From positions 298,805,093 through 298,869,092 of the forward strand of contig NC_058135.1 of the NCBI RefSeq assembly GCF_016433145.1: DNA of 64,000 nt. Direction: 5' to 3'. Position numbers and translations under genes: made by a program. Source of the stretch: Gracilinanus agilis. Lineage: Eukaryota. The notes below the pieces were generated by a model. The model saw only the letters and a program-made list of their open reading frames with translations. It did no database searches and was not told the origin of the DNA. Of this stretch, positions 10,962-62,049 are shown one piece after another; the stretch's first letter is position 1; each line of letters begins with the position of its first letter.

Positions 10962-11607
10962 GTAAGGAGGGCTGCTGTTTTACTGGGCGAATAGTAAAAG
11001 GTTTGGTCGCCAGAGAACGGAACAATGATCAATCCCCAAAATGATTTTAGTGGTTTATTTACAAAATGTAGGAGAGAGAGATGAGAAGAGGGTAGAGGAA
11101 GAGATTGTAGTCAAGTCTGGGCTTTGCTCAGGCAGGGCTCCAGAGGCCCAGCCAGAGCCTAAAAATCAATTAACAAGGGGTTTAGCCACAAGGGCTTCTC
11201 CCAGTCAAGGGAGCCTCCCGGAGGCTAGTACCTCCTGGGAGGTTAAAGGAGTCAGCCTTCTGCACTCAGCACGTGTAGTTCCGAGAGATTTAAGAGCAGT
11301 CTCAGGGTCCCAGGTCCAGAGCGCCTCCACATTCAGGCAAGAACCAGAAGAGAACTCTCAGCTCACTCAACTTTCTCTTTTAAAAGGAGCCTCTTTTGCA
11401 ACACTTCTTGTGCCTTCCTCTTAGTTTACGTGTCCAATCACAACAGATGCTCTTTTTAGGACTGCCCAGGAGGCACGCAGTCAATTCTGATTCGACACTC
11501 ACTCTAACACATGTGGGTTACAGACCTCCCCACTTGTGAGTTAAGTGGAGATGTTTGCACCTTTGGTGATTAAAGATGGGCAGGGTAGATTTAATCTCAT
11601 TATCACA
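10962..11607 (-). mobile_element. Solo LTR (same family as 14374-15133)
   Basis: Minus strand starts TGTGATAATGAGATTAAATCTACCCTGCCCATC; has a TATA-like TTTTAAAAG and AATAAA; homologous to 14374-15133. Confidence 0.8.
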
Positions 11608-14373: not shown

Positions 14374-15133
14374 GTAATGGTAAAAAGGGGTTTTGATTGG
14401 TAAATATTAAAGGGTTTGGTCGCCAGGAGATTGAACAATCATCTGTCCCCAGTTAAAGAATAACCTCAAGGTAAAATGACTTTTATGGAAAATTTATTTA
14501 CAATAAGAGAAGAGGAAGAAGAAATAAGGAAATAAGAGAGAAGATAAGATAGGATAAGTAATCTAACACAGTAGGCTATTTGCTCCAACCCGCTAGTTTA
14601 ATCCAGGTAGATCTAATTAACCCTCAGCCGAGGGAAATCCAGCCTCGATCCCAAGGCCAGAAACTTGGAGGGCCAGAGGCCAAGAGGGCCAAAGGGCCCT
14701 GAGGCAAATAAAGCAAAAGCTTCAGTCACAGAATCTCTTTGAATTAAGGAAAGTTCCTTAAGAGAAGTTCAGGAAGATTCAGTCTTTACACTCACCACGT
14801 GGAATTCTAAAGGAAAGATTTAAGAACAGTCTCACCAGCTTCAGGGCTCCTTCAGGTCCTGTTCACAAACCACAAGAGAGATCCCAGCTGACTGAGGTCT
14901 CTTTTAAAAGGGACCTCTTTTGTGTCACTTCCTGTGCCTTCCTCTTAGGTTTACGTGTCCAGCCACAACAGCCGCTTAGGACTGCCCAGGAGGCAGTCAG
15001 TCAATTCTGATTTGTTACTCATTCTAGGTCACATGGGTCACAGACCACCCAACTTGTGAGTTGAGTGGAGATGTTTTCACCTTTGGTGATTAAATCTAAA
15101 GATGGGCAGGGTAGATTTAATCTCATTATCACA
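14374..15133 (-). mobile_element. Solo LTR
   Basis: Same terminus as 10962-11607; candidate 5-bp TSD GCGAC/GCAAC (one CpG-type mismatch). Confidence 0.8.
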
Positions 15134-16530: not shown

Positions 16531-17391
16531 ATGCCGGAGCTGACGCTGGTGCCCCGGGCCCTCGTCTCCCTGGTGGGCCTCCTCCGGCTGCTCCAGGTGG
16601 TCCTGTGCTGTGTCACCTTCAGCCTGGCTGCCTCAGGCCCCAGCTTGGGCTCCCCATTCGGGGTGTGGTGTTTGTGCTCCTGGTGTCTCTGTTTCTTGCT
16701 GTCGCTGGCCATCTTGGTGCTGGAGCTCCTGGGCTTGGGGCCGCAGCTGCCGCTGTCCTGGGAGGACTTCACTTCGGCGGCAGCCATGCTAGCCACCTTG
16801 CTGACCTTCACCGCGTCCATCATGTATCCCAGCATCTTCGTACCAGAGGCCCCGAGCGGCTGGTCCCACACGGCGGCAGCCACGGCCACGGCCCTGTCCT
16901 GTGTGTGTTTCGTGACTTATGCGGTGGAGGTGGGGCTGACTCGGGCCAGGCCGGGGCAGCTCCGGGGCTTCCTGTCCACCGTGCCTGGCTTGCTGAAGGT
17001 GTTTGAAGCCTACGTGGCGTGTGTGATCCTGGCCCTGGTGGATGTGGACCACATGTATGCCGAGAACCCAGGGTGCCAATGGTGCATGGCTGTGTTCTGC
17101 CTCTGCTTTGGGATGGCCCTGCTGATCATCGGGCTCACCATAGGTCAGTGTCTGGGCTCCCTGCCGTGGCCCGTGGATCGCGTCCTCGTGGCCCTCACGG
17201 GCTTTGCTTCACTGCTCTACCTGTCAGCCGCCATCACGTGGCCCATCTTCATCTTCAAGTCACCCCGTTCCAGAGGTCGGTGGAAGAGCGCGGCGGTGGG
17301 AGCGACAGTCCTCACCTACGTCAACCTCCTGGCCTACGCGGCGGACCTCTTCTTCTCCAGCCGGATGGTGTTCCTCACGCAGTCCACATAG
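16531..17391 (+). CDS. Myeloid-associated differentiation marker family protein (MYADM/MYADML2-like paralog), single coding exon, 286 aa, two MARVEL domains
   Basis: Intact ORF with Kozak GGCACCATGC. Eight hydrophobic segments; motifs LRLLQ, LSWEDFTSAAAMLATLL, YAVEVGLTRARPG, VPGLLKVFEAYVAC, QWCMAVFCLCF, LLYLSAAITWP, TYVNLLAYAADL align to recalled MYADM/MYADML2. Confidence 0.9.
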   Translation: MPELTLVPRALVSLVGLLRLLQVVLCCVTFSLAASGPSLGSPFGVWCLCSWCLCFLLSLAILVLELLGLGPQLPLSWEDFTSAAAMLATLLTFTASIMYPSIFVPEAPSGWSHTAAATATALSCVCFVTYAVEVGLTRARPGQLRGFLSTVPGLLKVFEAYVACVILALVDVDHMYAENPGCQWCMAVFCLCFGMALLIIGLTIGQCLGSLPWPVDRVLVALTGFASLLYLSAAITWPIFIFKSPRSRGRWKSAAVGATVLTYVNLLAYAADLFFSSRMVFLTQST

Positions 17392-22677: not shown

Positions 22678-23200
22678 TGTTATGGACCCAGACCATGGAC
22701 ATGCCAATGAAAGGTCAACGTGTGAATCAACGGCTATAACAAGGAGGCCAGAAATGCTTGGCATTAGCCAGGCTGCAAACACTCATCTCCTTCCCAGGAG
22801 GACTAACATGGCGGCTAAAGGCAACCTTGATATTCTAGGCTCGTATATAACCCTACCAAGGAACATGCGGAGGGAAGGCCAGAAATGCTATCTGCCACTT
22901 CAGAAACCTGAAAGGGAAAAAGGGAGAAGAGAGACCTGACTCGGCCCACCGTCCCCAGGCCACGTGCTTAGGGAGGCCAACACACCAATGGAGATCTGAG
23001 GAGATCTGCAGATGTCTATCCAGAATGGCTTCCGCCATCCATGGGGGTGAGGAAGGAGGGATGGCGCTCGCCCTAACGAGATGGCAGGGACAGCCCAAAT
23101 CCATCTCCCATGTCAACAGAATCCTTCAGCTACAATCCAGCAGGACTTCTGGCAACAGGAAGTTGTGAGTTATCCCTTTGCCTTCTGACGTCCCTAAACT
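22678..23200 (+). mobile_element. LTR; a related fragment lies at 23580-23807
   Basis: Starts TGTTATGG, TATA GTATATAA near 22845; 22930-23100 is homologous to 23620-23790. Confidence 0.55.
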
Positions 23201-23570: not shown

Positions 23571-24410
23571 CTCAGGCCACTGAGAAGTGACAGAAGAGGG
23601 AAATTCTACAAAAAGTGTGAAGAGAGACCCGACTCAACCCGACTATCTCCAGGACATGTGCTTAGGGATGAAACGAGACAGAGGTCCACACACCAATGGA
23701 AAGTTGAGATTTGCAGAGATGTCTATCTGGAATGGCTTCCACCATCCATGGGGGCGAGGAAGGAGAAACAGCCCTAGCCCTAACAAGATGGCAGGGGTGT
23801 TATAAACAAAACACTATCTGGGGTCAACCTTAACAAAGTAACATTTTTCTCTTTGGCAAAACACTGTTCCCTGGGATTGGTTTTGCTACCAATTCTATCC
23901 CCTGGGTTTCTCACTTCATCCAGCATAGCTCTTAACTCATTACCTGCAACAAAGCTTCTCTGGCTGGTTAGCCTTAAGTCTCTATTACTTCTATCTAAAC
24001 GCTTGCCATTTTGTTTCGCTCCTTCCATTGAAGTCTGTGACAACTCAGTATTTTCCACAAGAGATTATCTCTCCCCATAAATTTCTCTGTGTAATTTCCT
24101 CAACTCATTTTCCATTTCTAATTCAGCAGTGGACTTATGTCTATTCTCCAGTGTGGTGTATTGATTTCCATCACTAGTGCCTATCATTAAAATATTGGCC
24201 ACATCCTGATTCTTGAGCTCTCTGCTCTCTCTACAATCATTATTCTTTCCTGACTTAGATGTATTACAGATTAACTTTCATGCATTTCTTGGCCTAGCTC
24301 CCAACTTCAAAAATTTCTCCATTTCTTCCACAGATGGTTTGTTAGAAACAGATTTACACTCATGCTGACAACAAGCTTGTTTTTTGAGGTTTGCTATTAA
24401 CAAAAGTCTT

Positions 24411-25731
24411 TTACTGGTAGTTGCTAGCTCTGTCTTTGGAAAAATCTATTTGCTTTCTAAATCTACAATTCTTAATCAAATGGCCAGGTCTGTTACATAA
24501 AAAACACTTTGGGACTTTGTTGTAAGATCTCTTTGGGTTGGAATAAGTTTCTTTTTTCTTAATTTCATGGTCTCTGGTTGTTTGCAACACAAAATTTCTA
24601 AATTCTTTTCTTTCTTTTTCCCTTCTGACTTCTTTCAGCTATCTTTTTAACTCCTGGATAGTTCTGTCCTTCTCTGAGTCTAACTCAGTCCTAATTTGTT
24701 GTTCCTTGCTTTTGGACTCATGAATATAGGTTGCATGCTTTCTAATGTCTTCTAGAGACAATTCTTCCCACTGTGGACAACTCTGTTTAAAATAGACTTG
24801 GAATTGGAATGCAAGTTCCCTTTATGAATTGGCACCTGATATGGGGTAGAGCTTCCTCAGATTGGTCTTTGTTAAAGCCTAGGAAATTTTCTGAATTTTC
24901 AATAAACCTGTCTAAAAACAAGCTAGGGTGCTCATCCTCAGCCTGCCTCATTTTTACAAACTTATTCCACCCATTAGGTCTTTTAGCATGTATTTTTACA
25001 GCCTCGAGTAAATCAGTTCTGCATTTCAAAAGTGCTTTCATATTTTCCGGTTCTGTCAAATCAATCACTTCATGCCCACATGGCCACAAAACCAAATTTG
25101 GGTTATCTCTTGTTTCAGCAATGAATTTGTCTTTTTCACTGGGGGTAAAGAATTCATCTAAAATAAATTCAGTGTCCTGGTAGGATGGATTAAAAAGGTT
25201 GAAGGTCCTTTTTAACTCCTTGGCTAATTTATATGGGGACAAGAAATATTTGGGGAACCTCCTCTTTAGCACCTCTAAATCTTGTGCAGTAAAAGCTTTG
25301 TATGTCTTCATGCTAACAGGTTCACCATTTGGTCTGAATTGGGTCTGATCTATAATCGGGAACAATGACACAGTGGTAAGGGCAATTGCTCCATTTTCAA
25401 TCTGGGTAGCCTCATTAATATCAAAATCAGTCTGGGTACAACTGTCCACCATCTTAGATCTTGGAGTTTCTTTGGCCTTAGGCTTGTATGCATTCTCTAT
25501 GATGTCTAGCTGTAAGATAGTATGTTCATCCAGTGCCTGTCCCTGCTTAATCTTACTATTGATTTCCACCATCAGCCTGAGCTGTTCCTTCATCACAGAA
25601 AACATATCTTCATTGTTTTGTTTGCCTTTCCCAAAGATCAATTGACTTATTTTCTTCACTGCCAAAATCCCTCGGATTGTTGTCACAAACATCACTACAA
25701 TTGCTGTTAAGTAGGACAGGAAATCTGCCAT
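24411..25731 (-). pseudogene. ERV gag: 314-aa open frame (25731-24787; TM segment, coiled coil, capsid) plus disrupted nucleocapsid tail
   Basis: ATG in strong Kozak (TTCACCATGG). Capsid-like YKAFTAQDLEVLK...FNPSYQD; MHR-like MRQAEDEHPSLFLDRF. After two frameshifts and one stop comes CCHC knuckle CFLCNRPGHLIKNC (24506-24465), then TAA at 24413-24411. Confidence 0.85.
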
Positions 25732-25802
25732 GGTGAATGCCAAGTACTTATAGGCATCATATGTTAGAATTTTTATAAAATAGTCTGAGATGACTTGTTT
25801 TG

Positions 25803-26392
25803 TGAGGATTATTTAGGTATTCGTTTATATACAGTTAATGTGGACCTAGCAGGAAGAGCTGGAGAATTCCAAGATGGAATGAAGAAGCAGGAAGTGTGTT
25901 TCTTGCTCACTGAGAGAGACTCCATGGTGGTTGGGACAAGCAGCAACTGACAACTAGGAGACACCAGATTTACCAGTGATCCTGTGGAAAGACTGTCACC
26001 TACTGGTGGGAGATTTTGGTAGAGACTGCTAAATCCCAACCTGAGGGGTCAGCTCCCAGAATCTACCCACCTGGAAGAGTGCAGCTGGTGCTCCGGAGGA
26101 GCAGAAACATCACTGGAGAGGCTGAACACTACTGCTGTGAGGATACTCACTCCTGTCCTGCTTTCCCCTGGGCCCTGTTATGCTTAGGTCTTAATTTAGT
26201 GTAGTCAAGTCCTTCCCCTGTCCCTGTGGTTTGCCCTTAGCTTGTTAGTGTAGAATCCCAATCCCCATCCTTTATCTTGTAGTCCCTGATTAAAAACTGT
26301 TATAAACCATTGCCTTTTGCCTGCTGGTTCCATAGGCCCTTGCCTAGGTGGGCTGAGTGACTGTTGGGGCCTAACTGCCACTTCCAGTAACC
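25803..26392 (+). mobile_element. Solo LTR inserted in the ERV leader (same family as 61257-61818)
   Basis: Reverse-complement homologous to 61257-61818; ATTAAA near 26289; orientation inferred. Confidence 0.75.
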
Positions 26393-26648
26393 GTAACCTC
26401 CTAGTAGTTAAATTTGGTCTCCCTACCTCGTTTGATCCTGTTCATGTCATTCCTGTCTCTCTCACCCCAGTGTGAACCCACAAATAATAATAGTTAACAT
26501 CCCTGCTAACCCTCCATTATACTTGAAACCATAGCCTTATCACACCTTGGGTGAAGAAATAGATGAACAGTGAGATGGTGCTAAAAATGAAAGTTGCCAA
26601 CCCCATCTTATTCCCTTTTCCCTTTAGTTAGCCTAGATTCTTTGCCCT

Positions 26649-27002
26649 CTGGCTTCACCAAAAACTGTTATAAACAAGAAGGGGTCCTAAGGAGATATCG
26701 ATATGCAGTGATGTGAATGTATCTAGCTGTATTCTCCCCAGCTGCAGGTGATGGAGGAACACCAACTCTGATCACCCTTTGTGGGAAGCCGTTTGATGTA
26801 TTAAATAGCCTTTGGAAAAATAGGATCAAATCTAGGGCCTGTTATCTGGATTCCCTACGTGACCAATCCAGACTGAGGCAGTCTTTGTGTTTGGTTCTGG
26901 TCACCTGAGCCCCGAAAAGCTCTGGTACCAGCAGGTAGGTTAATCCAAAATCAACTTGATCCCTCCAAGAGGCTATTAGGAGTCATTTAGAGAAACAGAG
27001 TC
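26649..27002 (-). mobile_element. Probable 5' LTR end and degenerate PBS of the gag-bearing ERV
   Basis: Minus strand ...GTTTATAACA-GTTTT-TGGTGAAGCCAG, resembling a tRNA-Arg PBS (TGGCGAGCCAG). Confidence 0.4.
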
Positions 27003-27670
27003 TGTAACAGATATTTTATCTGGATCCCATTACAAAATCATCGGCAAGTAAAACTGTGTGTATGATTTTTCTGCACTGCATGTCAGGAATGCAGACAGAA
27101 TGGGCCATCTAAGATAAAAATCTGAGGCTCCTCTTTTGACTCAGTTTTGATCCCCACCTTTCTTAGAACTCCTATTGGAAAACTTTGAAGTGGCAGACCA
27201 GCATCTACTGAGTTAATGATTCCTCTCCTTGATAATTAAGAAGCCCGAACCCTAACAAACATTACTTAAGATAAGTCTGCATACTTAGATAAGTATGGCG
27301 CTTTTAGTCTTGACTTTATTTGTCCAGGTGCCTATAATCCTGGAAGACAGAACTCAATAAGTGAGCATCTCCATAAAAATATTTCCTCTCCCAGAATTAT
27401 CCCTACTAATTGATGGTCGGAAATTGGCCATTGTCTTGGCACTTATACCTTTACTCTTTAGACTTTAATGGATTATGTATGACCTGTTACCCCTTCATAA
27501 CTGTGACTCTTTCTTTGTGTTCTTTGTTTGAAATCAGTATATAATAAATCCCAAGCCCACAGAATTTGGGACAGCATGGGCTAAACACTAGTCTGGCTGT
27601 TCTCATTTTTCTTTTTCCTGTCTTATCAATCCGACTCCGTAGACGCCACTCAGAACCCCCATTTTTATCA
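27003..27670 (+). mobile_element. Solo LTR
   Basis: TGTAACAG...TATA/AATAAA (GTATATAATAAA ~27538)...ends TTTTATCA. Confidence 0.6.
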
Positions 27671-27689
27671 TATAGGAGGCTGGCCCCCT

Positions 27690-28457
27690 ATAACCCTTGA
27701 TAATTGTTATGATTTCCCCTTTCCTTTAACAGTTGCCCAGGGAGGACCCTCAAGAGACTAAATGGATGGGTAACCTTTCCAGGTCCAACCTGGGATTGGA
27801 CAGATTAACATAGGGCTTTTGATTTGCCTTGGATTATGTTTTATATTTGACTGAGTTGACTCCCTCCCCAAGGGTCCTGATATAAGGACCACTCAGGAAG
27901 GTACTTATTAAACTCTATAATCAGGGAAAGGATAAACAGGACAAGGATTGCGGATTGGCAACCCTATCAATCTATTATCTATAAACTAGTTGACAGTCAG
28001 ACTGGAGGCTACTGATCATGTAGAAGCTGGAGCTTTATTCTCTCCACTACCTCTGGCCCAGCCTGGTCACAGCCAAGCCAGAGAATAGGGACTGCTACTG
28101 ATGCAGCTGTGTTGGTGATCTTATTCTCTCAGCTTTCTCACTACCAGTGTTTGGTGATGCACTAGCTCTCCCAGTCTTTCAGGAAATATTCAGATCTATT
28201 CCTACCCTCTTCTTCATAGACCTCCCTGCCTCCCTTCACCACCCACTCAGAGATTTCCCAGTCCAGAGACTCCTGTCTAGAGATCTCCAGAGCCCAGAGA
28301 GAGACCTCTTTCAAGTGGCTGTCAGGGGTATATATACTCCTGGGGCCAACCAACATTTGCCCCTGGCTCACGGCACCTGGGAACATTCCGAGTCTTCCAA
28401 CTGCCATCCCTGCCATTCAAGGTGGCATCCATCACTTCCCAGATTATGAATATAACA
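27690..28457 (-). mobile_element. Solo LTR (same family as 33896-34677)
   Basis: Minus strand starts TGTTATATTCATAATCTGGG...GATGGATGCCACCTTG; homologous along its length to 33896-34677. Confidence 0.8.
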
Positions 28458-30104: not shown

Positions 30105-31052
30105 TCAGTCCCCCGGGCCCCCCAGCCTCCTTGCCACGGCCCTCCTGAGGGCAACTTTGACCTCCTTGTTTCTGAGGGTGTAGATGAGGGGGTTGAGCAG
30201 GGGCGTGATGGCCGTGTAGAGCACGGCCACCACGCGGTCCTGGGACAGGGTGTGTCTGGAGCGGGGGCGGAGGTACATGAAGCCAGCACAGCCGTAGTGG
30301 ATGACCACCACGGTCAGGTGCGCGGCGCACGTGGAGAAGGCCTTCCTGCGGCCCTCCCGGGAGCGGATGCGCAGCACGGCGGACGCGATGAGCACGTAGG
30401 AGAGGAGGGTGAGGGAGAAGCAGCCCAGGACCAGGAAGCCCGTCACGGCAAACAGGAGGAGCTCGTTGGTGCGCACGTCCGAGCAGGCCAGCTTGAGCAG
30501 GGGCGCGATGTCACAGAAGAAGTGCTGGACGCGCCGCCGGCCCCCGCAGAAGCTCACGCGGCTCATCATGGCCACGTGCAGCAGGGAGTGGAAGAAGCCC
30601 ACGGCCCAGACGAGGCCCGCCAGGCCCAGGCAGAGGGGCCGCGTCATGAGCAGCGGGTAGCGCAGAGGGTTGAAGATGGCCACGTAGCGGTCGAAGCCCA
30701 TGAGCGTGAGCAGCATCGCCTCGGTGCTGCCCAGGAAGTGGAAGAAGAACATCTGGGCCAGGCAGCCCCGCCGCGAGATGGCCCGGGCCGCCGCCAGGAG
30801 GTCGCCGAACATCTTGGGCACCGTGGTGGACGAGTAGAAGACGTCGATGAAGGACAGGATGCTGATGAAGAAGTACATGGGGGTGTGCAGCGGCCGCTCG
30901 CTCCAGATCACCAGCATGATGGCCACGTTCCCCGCCACGTTGGCCACGTAGATGAGCAGGAAGACGGCGAACAGCAGGGTCCGCAGGTCGGGGGCGTCGG
31001 AGAGCCCCAGCAGCAGGAACTCCGTGGCCAGCGTGCCGTTGCCCTCCTCCAT
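30105..31052 (-). CDS. Olfactory receptor, class II (family 12-like), intact 315 aa
   Basis: N-glycosylation site NGT; motifs LHTPMYFF, GSTEAMLLTLMGFDRYVAI, HFFCD, KAFSTCAAHL, PLLNPLIYTLRNKEVK; no lesions. Confidence 0.95.
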   Translation of the reverse strand: MEEGNGTLATEFLLLGLSDAPDLRTLLFAVFLLIYVANVAGNVAIMLVIWSERPLHTPMYFFISILSFIDVFYSSTTVPKMFGDLLAAARAISRRGCLAQMFFFHFLGSTEAMLLTLMGFDRYVAIFNPLRYPLLMTRPLCLGLAGLVWAVGFFHSLLHVAMMSRVSFCGGRRRVQHFFCDIAPLLKLACSDVRTNELLLFAVTGFLVLGCFSLTLLSYVLIASAVLRIRSREGRRKAFSTCAAHLTVVVIHYGCAGFMYLRPRSRHTLSQDRVVAVLYTAITPLLNPLIYTLRNKEVKVALRRAVARRLGGPGD

Positions 31053-33895: not shown

Positions 33896-34677
33896 TGTTA
33901 AAATCATTATCTGGGCAGAGATGGATGCCACCTTGACTGACAGGGCTGGCAGTTGAGAATTTGGAATGTCCCCAGGTGCCATGAGCCAGGGGCAAGTGTC
34001 GGTTGGCTCCACCCTATAAATACCCCCTCAGAAGAACAGCTGTGAGCTCAAAGCTCAGAGCAAGAACTGGGACAGAGGGAGGTGAAGGGTGCAGAGGGTC
34101 GGCCTCAACCTGAACCTGTAACCTGTACCTGACTGAGAGAGAGCTAGTGATCAATCAGTGCCATTGATAGCAGAGCTGAGAGAGCACAGAAATCATCTAG
34201 CAGCATCAACATCAATTAGCCTTCCCTAATCTCTGGCTTGGCTGTGGCCAGGTCAGGTCAGAGTTAGAGAGAGGGTGAAGAGCCTCCAGCTTCTACCAGC
34301 CTGGCAATCTCCAGACTTGATCAAAGATCAGCTTAGTAGCCAAACCAATAGCAATAGGGTTCCCACAGTGCTCAAACCTATTACCTTGTTTTCCTTTCCC
34401 CATTAAGAGTTAATACAGTGATTTACCAACAAGTACCTTTCCTGAGCAGTTATTCTACCACAGCCCTTGGGAAGGGGAGATCAATAGGCAGTCAGATACC
34501 AACATTTCCAATAGCCAATCAAATAGCCTTATCAACAACTAATCCAACCTCAGTTTGGGACCTAGAGAGGTTAACCATCCATTCAACCTCTCAGGGGTCC
34601 CCACCCTGGGCAACTGTTGGAAGCCACTGATGGGCTTAACCAGCCAAGCCTGTCAGGGAGGAGAGGGATAGGTTACA
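33896..34677 (+). mobile_element. Solo LTR
   Basis: TGTTAAAATC...GGTTACA; TATAAA 34015-34020; paralog of 27690-28457. Confidence 0.8.
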
Positions 34678-36879
34678 TCCCTAGCTATTGTGAGAGGAGT
34701 GTGCTTCCTCCCTTGCCAACTCTAGGTGCCTTAGGCCTTGGGCCCCTGATCCCTTCTCCATTCATATTATCCCTGAGATAGCATCCCTCCTCTAATATCT
34801 AGAAGGGAGATCCAAAGGGGAGACATACAAAGATATCATCAGTAAGGGCCAGGAGATCTCATTCCTTTTTAAGACTCCTGACCAGAGTCTTAGCCACGCA
34901 CATCTCAGGGGCTCCCTAGCCAAGGTCGGGCGCTCGGCCACTGGGCGCCGGAGACCCCTTCCCTGGGGCGGGGGGCCCTTTAGGAGTCCGCTTGGGATGG
35001 AAAACCCTAGGTTCGAGAGCCTTCCTAGCCAGGCGACCTTGGCAGGGAATGGCTACTTCCTGGGCCTCAGTATCCCCGGCTACAAGGAGAGAAGGTAGCA
35101 AGATGCTGTCTTCTAGATCTGACATTCTGTGGCCTGATGCCTGGCTGGGGCAGGGGGGATGAGGAGGCAGGGAGCCCAAGGGAGGCCTCCTCGAACCCTA
35201 ACGTTTTCTGTCCTCGGCCCCCTCGGCCCAGCTCCCCGTGATCCTTGTCTCCCGGGATCATGGCGTGGACTTTGCCTGGGGATCTCGGGCTCTGGGATCC
35301 CCTGAGGCCTGGCAGGCTCCCCCACCTTCCTCAGACTTAAGAGTCGGCTTTGCTTTAACTGCGTGGTTGGAGGGGTAAAGTATGGGGGTGGGGGGGGTGG
35401 GCCTGGGCTGGCACGCTCGTAGGAGCTTCCCTTCTGTCTCAGAGGCCAGGATCCCCTCGATCTCTGGCCTTCCTGGGGAGTGTCCCAGCCGGGAAGGACG
35501 GGATAACGTGGGGGCTGCTCAGAGGAGGGAAAGAGCACTTCTCTGTCAGGGTGGGGGGCGGGCAATGCTCCACGCTGTCCTGCGGGTGGGCAGCTGGAGC
35601 GGCTCCGGCTCACAGACTGGAAGAAAGGCTGCCCGGCAAAGCGAGTGGAAGATCCCTCACAGCTCTGCCCCTCGGAGGGTGGTCCGGGGGGGCGGACTGG
35701 CAGCCAACGGTAGGGCCGCGGGCTCTGGTTGGGGGGGGGGGCCCGCTCTGAACTGCAGGCTTCTGGGATTCTGCGCTGGGAACTCAGGCCTCCCACCTCT
35801 GGCCTGCAAGGAAGCTGGCAGCCTCGGGGAAGGAGGAGCAGGGGGACGGGACACCGGAGGCGGCAGGGATTGCGCGGGTGGCCTAGCGCGCCCCTCTCGC
35901 TTACGGGAGTCGAGGCCCGGGAAGAAAGAACAACTGGCTTAAGTGGGTGCTGGAAACTCCTGCTTGTCTCCAGGGGAGCTTGTTGGGAACCAGATGCAGG
36001 CTCAGGAAGCAGGAAGTAGGGAGAGTCTCACACTTACTGAGTTCTCAAGTATGGTAGTGAGATCCCCAGCGCGGGAGGTATGCAGGAAGAAGCCAGATGA
36101 CAAGCTGCAGCCGCACAGGAGATTCCTACATGGGGCAAACCGTTGGGAAAGAGGGACTTCATGCAGCATACAGCAACAGTCCCAAGCCCAGAGCTGGGAA
36201 GGGTCACAAAACCCAGCCCCCGCGCCAGGCCCCCACTGCCCAGAGTCCGGGGGAGAGGCGCCACAAGGCTCTTGCTTGTGCTCTACAAAAGCTAAGAGAG
36301 GGTCAGTGGCTGATGGCTGTCCGGGACTCTCTCCTCAGTCACCAATCCCCAAACTACGGAGGCAGAGGGCCCTTCTTCTCCCGGCCTTAGCCTCTCCAGA
36401 TGGACATTAAGGCCTGGGGTCGGGGGATCTCTAAGCACCCTTTGGGGACCTAGAGGACAACGGGCAGGGCCGGCACCACAGGGTAGGGTTAGGCTCCCTC
36501 AGAAGGACAGCCGGGCCAGAACACTCACCTCCTTTCTGTCTGCCTGCTCAGCCAGCTTCCCATCCCGAGTTCTGAAGGGCCCCGAACTGGGATTTAGGCT
36601 GGGCCATATGAAGGAGGAGCTGCCTGGGGAAAGGGGGCCTCGGGCTCCCCAGGGCAGGGGGCGACTGTTTACCAGAGACGCAGCTCCCAAGGAGCCGGGA
36701 GAGAAGCCAATTAGGCTGTGCGGAAAGTCTCGAATGCCACCTCTCCAGGGAAACGCCTACAAAGAGTCCCAGGGAGCATGTCTCTGGGGCACGGAGAGAG
36801 GGGCCTCCTGAGCGGAAGCAGAGACTCTCCAGGGTGGGGCGGTGGGCTCCATTCCCTGCACAACAGTAAATGGACCTCG

Positions 36880-40788: not shown

Positions 40789-41288
40789 NNNNNNNNNNNN
40801 NNNNNNNNNNNNNNNNNNNNNNNNNNNNNNNNNNNNNNNNNNNNNNNNNNNNNNNNNNNNNNNNNNNNNNNNNNNNNNNNNNNNNNNNNNNNNNNNNNNN
40901 NNNNNNNNNNNNNNNNNNNNNNNNNNNNNNNNNNNNNNNNNNNNNNNNNNNNNNNNNNNNNNNNNNNNNNNNNNNNNNNNNNNNNNNNNNNNNNNNNNNN
41001 NNNNNNNNNNNNNNNNNNNNNNNNNNNNNNNNNNNNNNNNNNNNNNNNNNNNNNNNNNNNNNNNNNNNNNNNNNNNNNNNNNNNNNNNNNNNNNNNNNNN
41101 NNNNNNNNNNNNNNNNNNNNNNNNNNNNNNNNNNNNNNNNNNNNNNNNNNNNNNNNNNNNNNNNNNNNNNNNNNNNNNNNNNNNNNNNNNNNNNNNNNNN
41201 NNNNNNNNNNNNNNNNNNNNNNNNNNNNNNNNNNNNNNNNNNNNNNNNNNNNNNNNNNNNNNNNNNNNNNNNNNNNNNNNNNNNNNNN
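40789..41288. other. Assembly gap (500 N)
   Basis: Run of n. Confidence 1.
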
Positions 41289-50010: not shown

Positions 50011-51148
50011 AAGGTGATAGATGCATGGTGATTTTCTATGTGAAATAATTATTTTCATTACACATTCAGCCTAATGGAAGTAATTGGATTACCAATAGTT
50101 TTATTCCATATTTGAAATCCAAAATACCATTTGTTATTTTTTTTCATTTCTGCTTTAGAAGAATTTTTGGGAAAACATTATATGGGAAATGACACTAACT
50201 ACAAATGATTTCTAAAGAGCAAAGATATTGTTTCTTTCCTATATTAACTCCTCTAGATCCAGATGCCATGAAATGATGAATTAAGGCATTTGAGAATAGG
50301 GTTAGAATTTTTTAAAACTTAAATACTTAATTGTACATATTGTCATAAAGCAAATGATAATTTCTTGTTTCCACTTTTAATGTATGTTGCATTTGTTTTG
50401 CTTGTAGTTTTATATTTAACACGAGAATTAACTTTTAAATCTCATGTCATCTATTTCTTATTTGATCATGAATTCTTCCCTTATCAATAAACTGACCTGA
50501 AAGGCAAATTATTCTATGCTCCCTTCATTTGTGTGTGGGATCACACTTTAGGGCTAAATCATATGCCCATTTAGACCTAATCTTAGAAGCACTGATGACA
50601 TCGTAGAGTGAATTGTCAGATTGAGAGCTAAGTGTGAATGTCTGTGGTTTCTGTGATACATAGTATAAGAGAGAAAATGAGACTGACCCTAAATTATTTT
50701 TATCTGATCCAAAGTAGCAGGGGGAAAGATGGAAAAATAGGAGAGATATACTTTCCTCACTACTCCATTTAGCTTGCTATTCTCTGGCCAGCATTAGAGG
50801 GCCCTAGCCATGCTCACTGAGAAGTCCTGCCAGCAACAAAACTAAAAGAGAAAAGCTTGGATATCCGCTCTTGCCTCGGTTTACCAAACCCTTTCTCTGC
50901 CCACTAACTCTCAGAAATATCATCTGAGGAGCCAAGCATGTCTTTCTATTTTACCTGTCTCATGATCTCCTGACTCTATTGGTGCCTTTTTGCTGCTGCC
51001 ATTCTATCCTTCATTCAATGGTATCATTTATGTAATCCTGAGTCAAGTTCAGGATCATGCCAGGTGTGCTGCCTGAAAAAGGGGGAGGGTTAATTTCCTT
51101 CACACAATAGCAAGACTGGAGATACATCTTTCCACATAGCCTGTGTTC

Positions 51149-57166
<6,018 letters not shown>

Positions 57167-60205: not shown

Positions 60206-61256
60206 GTTCAAATATGACCCCCTACCTATGTGACCCTGGGTAAGCTACTTATCCCCAATTGCCTACCTCTTACCCATCTTCTGAGGGTAATCAAAAAAAT
60301 TAAAAAAAATGCCTGAGGAATCAAAGCTCTGCGCTTCTGAGCACATCAACTTATTAAAGCAAAGCGTACCAACTGCCTGACCAATAAGGACGAGGCCCTT
60401 TCCTGGGCTTAGGGCTGGACATCGAAATCAGGAGGGAAAGAGACTGATCTACCTTAGAAGAGATGAATTAAATTAGACCAACGAATGCAAAGGAAATAAT
60501 CCAATGCTGGATCACCTGCTTCCTATTTGGAGAAAAGGTTAGGGACCTGCCAAGATGAGACGGGGAAGAGAAACAGAGGAAGTTCCCTGAAAAGGGGTTC
60601 CCCTCCTTCCCAATGTCTGTAAACAATCAAAAGAACAAAGAAGCAATAAGTGATTGATTAATATGGACCCAATTAGGAGCTAAGACTCACTGAAAGCCTG
60701 AGACTTACAATTAGGAGAAAACTCCTTCCATCCGTCTCAGAATCTGGCTGTGTTTCTGGTCAACCTAAGCTCAAGCCTTAGCTGAGGGTCTCTAAACAGC
60801 AGGTACAGGCGGTCCAGTTTCCCAGCCAGGCAGGGGAGGTAAAAATAATGTAATGTGGCTTTCTCCCAATTTTCCCCATTGAATAAACTTACCTCTCCAG
60901 ACAGAATTTGGACGAGGCACACAGCTGAACAGAAGGGAACCGAGCCAGCTCCAGAACTGAGTGACAACATGGAGAATGTTTCCATAATTCACCTCTTGCT
61001 GCCCCAAAGCCCTCCCCCCTTCCTTCCCAAGAGGGAATCAGCTCAGTAGATGGCACAAGGTCGGGCTGTCCCAGCTTCTTCACACACCCTACAGGAAATG
61101 CTGAGACCATGCTTTAGGGGAATTATTATGGGGAAAACTAGGGGAGTTGACTTAAATATTAAATGTGGGTCCAGAAGGATGTGAGGGAGACAGGAATGAC
61201 AGAAGGTAGGACCAAACAAGGAAGGGAGACTGGGTTATAACTGCTAAGGAAATATC

Positions 61257-61818
61257 TGTTAACACAAGTGGCAGTTAGGCCTAACTGCCACTCTGCACCA
61301 TCTAGACAAGGGCCTATGGAAACTAGCAAGCAAATGGTAAGAGTTTATAACAATGTTAATTAAGGAAACTATGGTAAAGGATGGGAATAGGGTTTTCTAC
61401 ACTTTCAGACTAAGGGCAAACCACAGGGTCAGGGGAGGGACTTATCTACACTCAACTGAGACCTAAGCAAGACGGGGTCCAGAGAATAGCAGGACTGAAG
61501 TGGGTATCCTCAACACACAGTCCAGACACACTCCAGCGATGTACCAGCTCCTCCAGGACCACTAGCAGTACTCTTTCAGGTGGGTAGATTCTGGGAGCTA
61601 ACCCAGCCCAAGTTAACCTGCAACTCAGGTTGGGATTAATAGTCTCTACCAAAATCTCCCACAAGAAGATGTCAGTCTTCCTTCAGGATCTCTGGAAATC
61701 TGAGGTCTCCTAGGGTCAGTTACAACTTGTCCCATCCACCATGGAGCAAGGCCCATTTCCTGCTTCCCCATTCCATTTGGAATTCTCAAGCCCTTCCTGT
61801 TAGGTCTCCTAAATAACA
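61257..61818 (-). mobile_element. Solo LTR (paralog of 25803-26392)
   Basis: TGTT...AACA termini; reverse-complement homology to 25803-26392. Confidence 0.8.
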
Positions 61819-62049
61819 ACTAAGTAATCCTCCTCACAACAGAATACCGAGAACAGAGATTTTCTGGAAACAGCAGCCATGTCAGTCTCAGCATCTTTCC
61901 TCAGAGAGGGGGAGCTCCACTCTTTGGTCCACATAAATTTCTCTAGTGAAACCTCACAGAAGCAGCTTCAGATTGAACAGAATTCTTAGAGTATGAAATC
62001 CAAAAATATAATCCAGGAGAAAAAAATGTTATTTCACCCCTCGTGAGAG

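Follow-up and report, generated by a model that had tools for sequence, protein, structure and literature searches.

A decayed class I endogenous retrovirus of Gracilinanus agilis belongs to a family whose Gag starts with hydrophobic segments and has no recognised matrix domain

Introduction

Retroviral Gag normally gets to membranes via its matrix domain. The known switches to an intracellular life, those of the mouse elements IAP and MusD, involved changes at the Gag N-terminus, and IAP itself is betaretrovirus-like, with a short hydrophobic leader placed on a matrix domain. In the portions of the IAP literature used here, changes at the Gag N-terminus send particles to the ER or the cytoplasm while env decays (PMC2791754), and SRP delivers IAP Gag to the ER, but the protein is not translocated (PMC3945221). 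MLV glyco-Gag is presented, in the sections of PMC3423011 drawn on here, as a CUG-started 88-residue extension of the full Pr65 Gag with type II topology. The Gag-only elements BHIKHARI (Bik-1/Bik-2) and ERNI/ENS-1 have, according to excerpts of PMC12067270, a coiled coil before the capsid, an N-terminal membrane association and no pol. Fv1, as outlined in excerpts of PMC3948346, is derived from gag and has an N-terminal coiled coil and a C-terminal part containing the MHR.

We analysed a window of 64,000 nucleotides from Gracilinanus agilis (contig NC_058135.1, positions 298,805,093 to 298,869,092 of the forward strand), in which an earlier note, made from the letters of the DNA, had described a Gag with an N-terminal membrane anchor. 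The family to which this gag belongs shares with IAP a hydrophobic N-terminal Gag segment, recognised by hydropathy only, and by analogy with the mouse element its Gag N-terminus may redirect assembly to the ER membrane, a mechanism that we infer for this family. Unlike IAP, whose family proper has a betaretroviral (class II) capsid, the family in the window has a capsid and a linked reverse transcriptase that are class I/MLV-like, apparently no matrix, and up to two long hydrophobic helices together with a coiled coil. It resembles MLV glyco-Gag (gPr80) in being a gammaretroviral Gag with a hydrophobic N-terminal part coded near the primer-binding site, but it starts with ATG, no matrix comes after this part, and its charge bias suggests a cytosolic capsid. 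It differs as well from the canonical gammaretroviral arrangement, in which Gag has a Gly2-myristoylated matrix, apparently absent from this family, and protease follows right after the gag stop, where the window locus has none.

The Bik and ERNI elements are like the window locus in having a coiled coil ahead of the capsid, an N-terminal membrane link (predicted here) and no pol in the element. They belong, however, to the Lokiretrovirus and ERV-L-sister lineages, their copies are young and intact with host roles shown, and the passages considered mention no transmembrane segment, whereas the copy in the window is a broken one from a family with a CCHC knuckle. Fv1, in the excerpts cited, is derived from ERV-L, has lost LTRs and pol, and has been kept across Mus with positive selection (PMC3948346), whereas the window locus lies within the remains of a provirus whose family is multi-copy.

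Our full-text literature search, which covered mainly open-access papers, turned up no description of a marsupial Gag with a transmembrane anchor, and LOC103106438, one of the genes discussed below, is not mentioned in the literature searched. Such a Gag is not described in the parts consulted of a 2026 review of ERV structures (PMC13709493) or of a survey of marsupial ERVs (PMC11334065), the words 'transmembrane' and 'myristoyl' being absent from those parts of the latter. The family may well have a name in a repeat library already.

Structure of the provirus remnant

The whole provirus remnant occupies 23798..28457 on the minus strand. Its termini are TGTTA...TAACA, and a direct repeat of 4 bp, which reads CCCC on the minus strand, flanks it on each side. 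It sits within a copy of a local repeat, and its flanks, when joined, resemble an unbroken copy of that repeat near 23070-23115. The 5′ LTR of the element (26666..28457, minus strand) is split by a nested LTR-like insert (26780..27693, no strand assigned) with 5-bp repeats at its flanks; in all three sequencing runs, contigs from other copies jump from 26772/26777 to 27717/27727 and thereby bypass the insert. The contig depth over the 5′ LTR is 10-100x that over gag. The LTR matches a solo copy at 33896-34618 at 68-83%. This copy is part of a probable solo LTR at 33896-34874 (plus strand) with CTCC flanking repeats, in which clear homology extends only to 34618, the right end being uncertain.

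The 5′ LTR of the element terminates in ...TATAACA, shortly ahead of a TGG that lies 5 bases past the LTR end and marks a primer-binding-site-like position (26643..26660, minus strand), assigned by its place in the element. The leader between this position and the start of gag measures only ~36 nt. On the other side of gag, ~0.5 kb of internal sequence (23798..24277, minus strand) is present in other copies too. It holds a nearly open frame of ~160 codons with one stop, which may represent another reading frame of the element besides gag and which gave no significant match in Pfam. As the earlier note had said, no protease follows: none of the three minus-strand reading frames in the 0.5 kb that follows gag (24300-23790) contains the D[TS]G motif, and pol is absent from the locus (23798..28457). 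The internal sequence ends in 12 bases identical to the end of the 5′ LTR, and there is no 3′ LTR, which suggests that a deletion took the 3′ part.

Locus-identical contigs have a depth of 51-66, whereas the gag bins total 950-2500; such a sum of contig depths gives no measure of copy number and serves here only as a rough contrast. At one gag position, 51 contigs differ from the window, and gag is covered by pieces of other copies at 85-90% identity, from which we conclude that gag is multi-copy. The observed/expected ratio of CpG is 0.08 in gag compared to 0.40-0.54 in two flanking regions. The locus is a broken member of a multi-copy class I ERV family, and it is likely dead and not a gene tamed by the host.

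An inserted LTR and the native start of gag

A solo LTR of another high-copy family (25798..26521, 724 bp, no strand assigned) lies within gag and has a 4-bp flanking repeat. It is a 75% match to a solo LTR at 61124-61841, which carries GAAT flanking repeats. In tblastn searches, residues 30-131 of P0010, a 150-residue relative (see below), align to 25797-25495 (E 1e-22), and its residues 3-30 align to 26606-26523 (43% over 28 residues, E 0.007, window only). Furthermore, contigs of other copies from sequencing run X1 bridge the LTR site, two of them joining 25792 to 26521 and one joining 25762 to 26523, and one further bridging entry from this run joins 25759 to 26523. The shorter side of these contigs measures just 27-40 letters, and run X1 alone spans the site; X2 and X3 do not. 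Since P0010 matches both sides and other copies are without the LTR, we regard the LTR as an insertion that interrupts gag near codon 28. The one poly(A)-like hexamer that it contains, at 26289, lies on the plus strand, and the LTR is probably antisense to gag.

The first 28 gag codons are found at 26523..26606 (minus strand) and include the first hydrophobic segment (Kyte-Doolittle (KD) score 1.76). BLASTP of this upstream piece against P0027 gave no match, so its homology stands on the weak P0010 match and the contig joints. The homologous start of gag is at 26606, and the likeness to gag runs in frame from MADFLSY up to the LTR edge. The ATG at 25731, at which Gag had been thought to begin with MADFLSY, is therefore ruled out as the native start, as homology continues upstream of it to the LTR edge and again at 26523-26606. 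The LTR had also been placed ~70 bp upstream of this ATG. Its edge is indeed 67 nt away, but a plain spacer between gag and its promoter is ruled out, because the LTR splits the coding sequence near codon 28. A Gly2 had been reported missing; while none of the six hydrophobic-start relatives has one, the upstream piece in the window opens with Met-Gly, in this case without the Ser/Thr that the myristoylation consensus has at position 6.

The open frame and the 3′ part of gag

The open middle of gag (24787..25797, minus strand) codes, in order, for the end of the N-terminal region, the second hydrophobic segment, coiled-coil-like helices, a flexible linker and the capsid, the last comprising the N-terminal domain, the MHR region and the first part of the C-terminal domain. 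It includes the 314-codon ORF from the internal ATG (25731-24787), which is uninterrupted as previously read. This frame opens with MADFLSY and has a hydrophobic segment at residues 7-25, which includes one Arg and reaches a KD score of 1.99 over 19 residues. The ~22 hydrophobic residues noted before are thus present, but as the second of up to two segments in the family rather than as the beginning of Gag. The AlphaFold model of the frame has helices after the hydrophobic segment, and its top fold match is the MLV capsid (Foldseek, E 6e-5), in agreement with the coiled-coil-like stretch and capsid that had been described. The MLV capsid is also the best solved-structure match for the frame (E 0.004), and residues 151-288 resemble Pfam Gag_p30 (22 bits, E 1.3e-4, under the cut-off of 27.4).

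Using P0001 in tblastn, we obtained three successive frames, 25779-24790, 24800-24444 (with one stop) and 24373-24251, and hence the two frameshifts and one stop that had been claimed for the last part of gag. The first frameshift lies near 24800 and the in-frame stop at 24639-24641. The rest of the capsid C-terminal domain, a charged helix and a CCHC zinc knuckle were found in 24411..24800 (minus strand) by tblastn with P0001, P0008 and P0012 and by Pfam. The knuckle, at ~24462-24509, had been considered removed; it is unreachable from the open frame, but its DNA is intact (zf-CCHC 20.9 bits, cut-off 20.8). After the second frameshift (~24444 to 24373), a third frame contains the gag tail with the GARP motif of the family (24278..24400, minus strand) and closes at a stop. 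The tail matches residues 493-522 of P0027 (43%, E 4e-8) and also residues 477-506 of P0001, so that gag homology extends to ~24280, beyond the end at 24411 given earlier.

In the model of P0027, the capsid C-terminal domain consists of helices 303-318, 325-338, 341-350 and 359-375 and is followed by a charged helix (382-413). The frame in the window aligns to about residue 347 of P0027, its last few residues being out of frame, and its model finishes at the helix equivalent to 325-338. Its product would therefore be without ~30 residues of the C-terminal domain. That the frame ends right after the capsid is ruled out, since the stop falls within this domain. The 314-codon frame is the part of gag that the lesions spared by chance.

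A family of Gag proteins with a hydrophobic start

A full HMMER search gave 26 relatives, and 29 were fetched in all. Three of these are named, all from Monodelphis domestica; among them, LOC103106438 (P0001) and LOC130457502 (P0007) are labelled uncharacterized. A word-index search with the ORF found no homologue among 817 candidates, and in scans for related loci none of 144 metagenome and none of 27 viral-contig pattern matches was confirmed. The ESM Atlas returned generic Gag clusters only, below 0.9, for the ORF and no usable match for the N-terminal 135 residues of P0027, results that say nothing on novelty.

We defined a hydrophobic start as a 19-mer with a KD score of at least 1.6 within the first 120 residues. 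Such a start is present in six of the 29 relatives (P0001, P0002, P0003, P0007, P0010 and P0027; KD 1.87-2.64). P0002, P0010 and P0027 have two such segments, while the second segment of P0001 scores only 1.51. The 19-mers of P0027, P0002 and P0007 are free of charges and reach 2.4-2.6. After the second segment, K/R outnumber D/E in the window and in five of the six relatives, and a coiled coil usually comes next. P0001, P0007 and P0027 have the same architecture as the family in the window, and no matrix family was found by Pfam in any of 11 relatives scanned.

In a capsid tree of 23 rows, rooted at the midpoint only and with seven sequences left out for a short or missing capsid (P0010 among them), the window groups with P0001, P0027, P0002 and P0003 (support 100/99), P0003 being on a long branch. 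An 11-row clade (100/99) holds the window and all five capsid-bearing relatives with a hydrophobic start; opposite are 12 rows including six Gly2 Gags, and in none of these 12 does the KD score exceed 0.98. Five clade members are without the segment. P0004, P0008 and P0011 begin at or within the capsid. P0005 and P0028 have sequence upstream of the capsid but no hydrophobic segment, and these two speak against a trait shared by every member, provided that their starts are correctly predicted.

The model of P0027 (pLDDT 67, pTM 0.31) has helices at 4-46, 53-86 and 94-123, which a disordered linker separates from the capsid; the long N-terminal helices in the AlphaFold models come with a pTM of 0.31-0.43 from 13 sequences and are silent on membranes. 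P0001 and P0027 are full-length and intact from the hydrophobic start through the GARP tail, with 36-38% identity to the open stretch in the window. Between them the capsid is 68-80% identical and the coiled coil with linker 26-35%, a contrast that reflects either constraint in an active family or co-option. Gag_p30 scores above the Pfam cut-off in P0027, P0002, P0004, P0005, P0007, P0008 and P0028, and a single zinc knuckle is present in each of P0001, P0027 and the window, where it is out of frame.

For both models, that of the window and that of the relative, Foldseek ranked the MLV capsid first, ahead of the HML-2 capsid in the comparison that included the latter (E 3e-8 versus 5e-4). P0004, which belongs to a sister subclade near P0007, is a predicted protein joining capsid to reverse transcriptase, and the closest solved structure to the latter is MLV/XMRV (E 3e-43). 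Based on the capsid fold and this reverse transcriptase, we place the family in class I. The class I marks at the locus are the 5′ LTR, the TGG after the LTR end and the 4-bp flanking repeats, with the 3′ LTR missing; a target-site duplication of 4 bp is usual for class I ERVs. Late-domain motifs were found neither in the pieces of gag in the window nor in any of the six hydrophobic-start relatives; as only three of six Gly2 controls have them, we do not take their absence as evidence.

Judged from sequence, a family of Gag proteins without matrix and with a hydrophobic start is real, and it is unusual. The suggestion of an ERV lineage with a transmembrane-targeted Gag was borne out as a family trait to the extent that the hydrophobic start recurs in six of 29 relatives and in none of the 12 rows outside the clade. 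A dead copy at this locus combined with a hydrophobic-start Gag as a trait of its lineage is very probable.

A proposed mode of membrane anchoring

We favour, at a probability of roughly 0.6, the reading that the locus is a broken, dead class I copy of a family in which hydrophobic helices and a coiled coil replace the matrix, with predicted membrane insertion and assembly at the ER. Taken by itself, the step of a membrane-inserted, ER-assembling Gag has a slightly better than even chance, insertion of the N-terminal helices being predicted from hydropathy only. In intact members, the first hydrophobic helix would act as a co-translational signal-anchor and the second would bring the chain back to the cytosol, with the basic residues coming after it. 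The coiled coil and capsid would oligomerise on the cytosolic face of the membrane, the zinc knuckle would package RNA, and particles would bud into internal cisternae, like those of mouse IAP. Through such budding the element may spread as an intracellular retrotransposon. The subfamily may have no pol adjoining gag, in which case a helper would be needed; the MLV-like reverse transcriptase mentioned above belongs to a related subfamily. In a broader and more tentative proposal, to which we give somewhat less than an even chance, a marsupial class I clade swapped its whole matrix for a hairpin of helices that spans the membrane, together with a coiled coil, leading to an integral-membrane Gag and to particles assembled on the ER. 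If so, the IAP lifestyle would have been reached independently in a gamma-like lineage, one with a pol-less subfamily whose full-length frames are still intact in opossum.

Against membrane insertion, the segment in the window contains an Arg and has a hydrophobic moment of 0.92. These features would suit a dead copy of a family whose helices are amphipathic or coiled-coil binders at the plasma membrane or another surface and do not span it, comparable to zebrafish Bik-1, the N-terminal coiled coil of whose Gag binds membranes in the excerpts of PMC12067270. Hydrophobic moments of 0.6-1.0 in five of seven segments fit such binding as well, as do the estimated insertion energies, which are marginal for most second segments. 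However, the charge-free 19-mers of P0027, P0002 and P0007 and the basic clusters after the second segment argue for spanning helices, and we consider peripheral binding unlikely.

The place of the hydrophobic coding sequence, which begins ~36 nt past the primer-binding position and thus where a leader normally lies, would fit a second alternative, a glyco-Gag-like type II glycoprotein with its capsid in the ER lumen or outside the cell and an N-terminal extension derived from the leader. MLV glyco-Gag is itself a type II membrane protein whose start lies in the leader, according to the sections of PMC3423011 used here, and N-x-S/T sequons occur in P0001 (three) and P0027 (six). Such a topology is nevertheless improbable: there is neither a downstream matrix domain nor a conserved second Met-Gly start, the open stretch in the window has no sequon, the charge bias points to a cytosolic C-terminus, and the conservation of the capsid (at the identity between P0001 and P0027 given above) and of the zinc knuckle is of the kind expected for particle assembly.

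While the window locus itself is an ordinary decayed ERV, the interest lies in its family. If the favoured reading of a membrane-inserted Gag is true, a class I integral-membrane Gag would be a further independent route to intracellular life, would offer a system to test whether lattice assembly and budding can proceed with a transmembrane anchor in place of matrix, and could go some way to explain the high ERV load of opossums. Moreover, opossum genes labelled uncharacterized can now be assigned to this family, and as candidates for co-option they are stronger than the copy in the window.

The open stretch and chance

For the chance calculation, 24815 was used as the frameshift position; the position estimated afterwards lies a few codons further along gag. 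The clustering of lesions, proposed earlier as a check, gave a P of 0.11 for a clean stretch of at least 327 codons when four lesions fall over ~533 codons, 0.23 with three lesions and 0.05 with five. With three point lesions after the LTR, P is 0.17 for the clean stretch and 0.04 for the clean one coming first. Identity before and after the frameshift is 53 versus 55% for P0012 and 36 versus 36% for P0008, while identity to P0001/P0027 falls from 58-60% to 36-38% past the frameshift, the earlier part including the MHR. The context of the ATG at 25731 is strong (A at −3, G at +4); two out-of-frame ATGs overlap this start, and its Met is not conserved among the relatives.

A co-opted Fv1-like gene (anchor, coiled coil and truncated capsid), transcribed from a neighbouring LTR, would agree with the strong start context, with the low P for the clean stretch coming first and with the N-terminal coiled coil and MHR that Fv1 likewise has (excerpts of PMC3948346), but it is very improbable given that the locus is what is left of a multi-copy provirus, with its 3′ LTR missing, that gag is split by a probably antisense LTR, that the start is overlapped and its Met unconserved, that P0012 and P0008 are equally similar on either side of the frameshift, that CpG is depleted in gag to the ratio given above and that the longest clean gap has a P of 0.1-0.2. 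Because both ends of gag are broken, the capsid is truncated, the length of the open stretch is within chance and the family is multi-copy, the capsid-only ORF kept open by selection, which the earlier note had offered as its second reading, is unsupported.

Other features of the window

Rfam and ARAGORN gave no matches within the 64-kb window, and its SINEs resemble opossum SINE1. A 286-aa ORF on the plus strand (16531-17391) has two MARVEL stretches in Pfam and is presumably MYADM-like. An intact olfactory receptor gene of 315 aa lies on the minus strand at 30105-31052 in GC-rich surroundings. At 51045-51830 (minus strand), an 84-bp tandem repeat codes for C2H2 zinc fingers, the best frame containing five canonical fingers and one stop. 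A 500-base assembly gap of N occupies 40789-41288. Finally, 10977-11607 and 14390-15133 form a pair of direct repeats ~3.5 kb apart with 76-87% identity.
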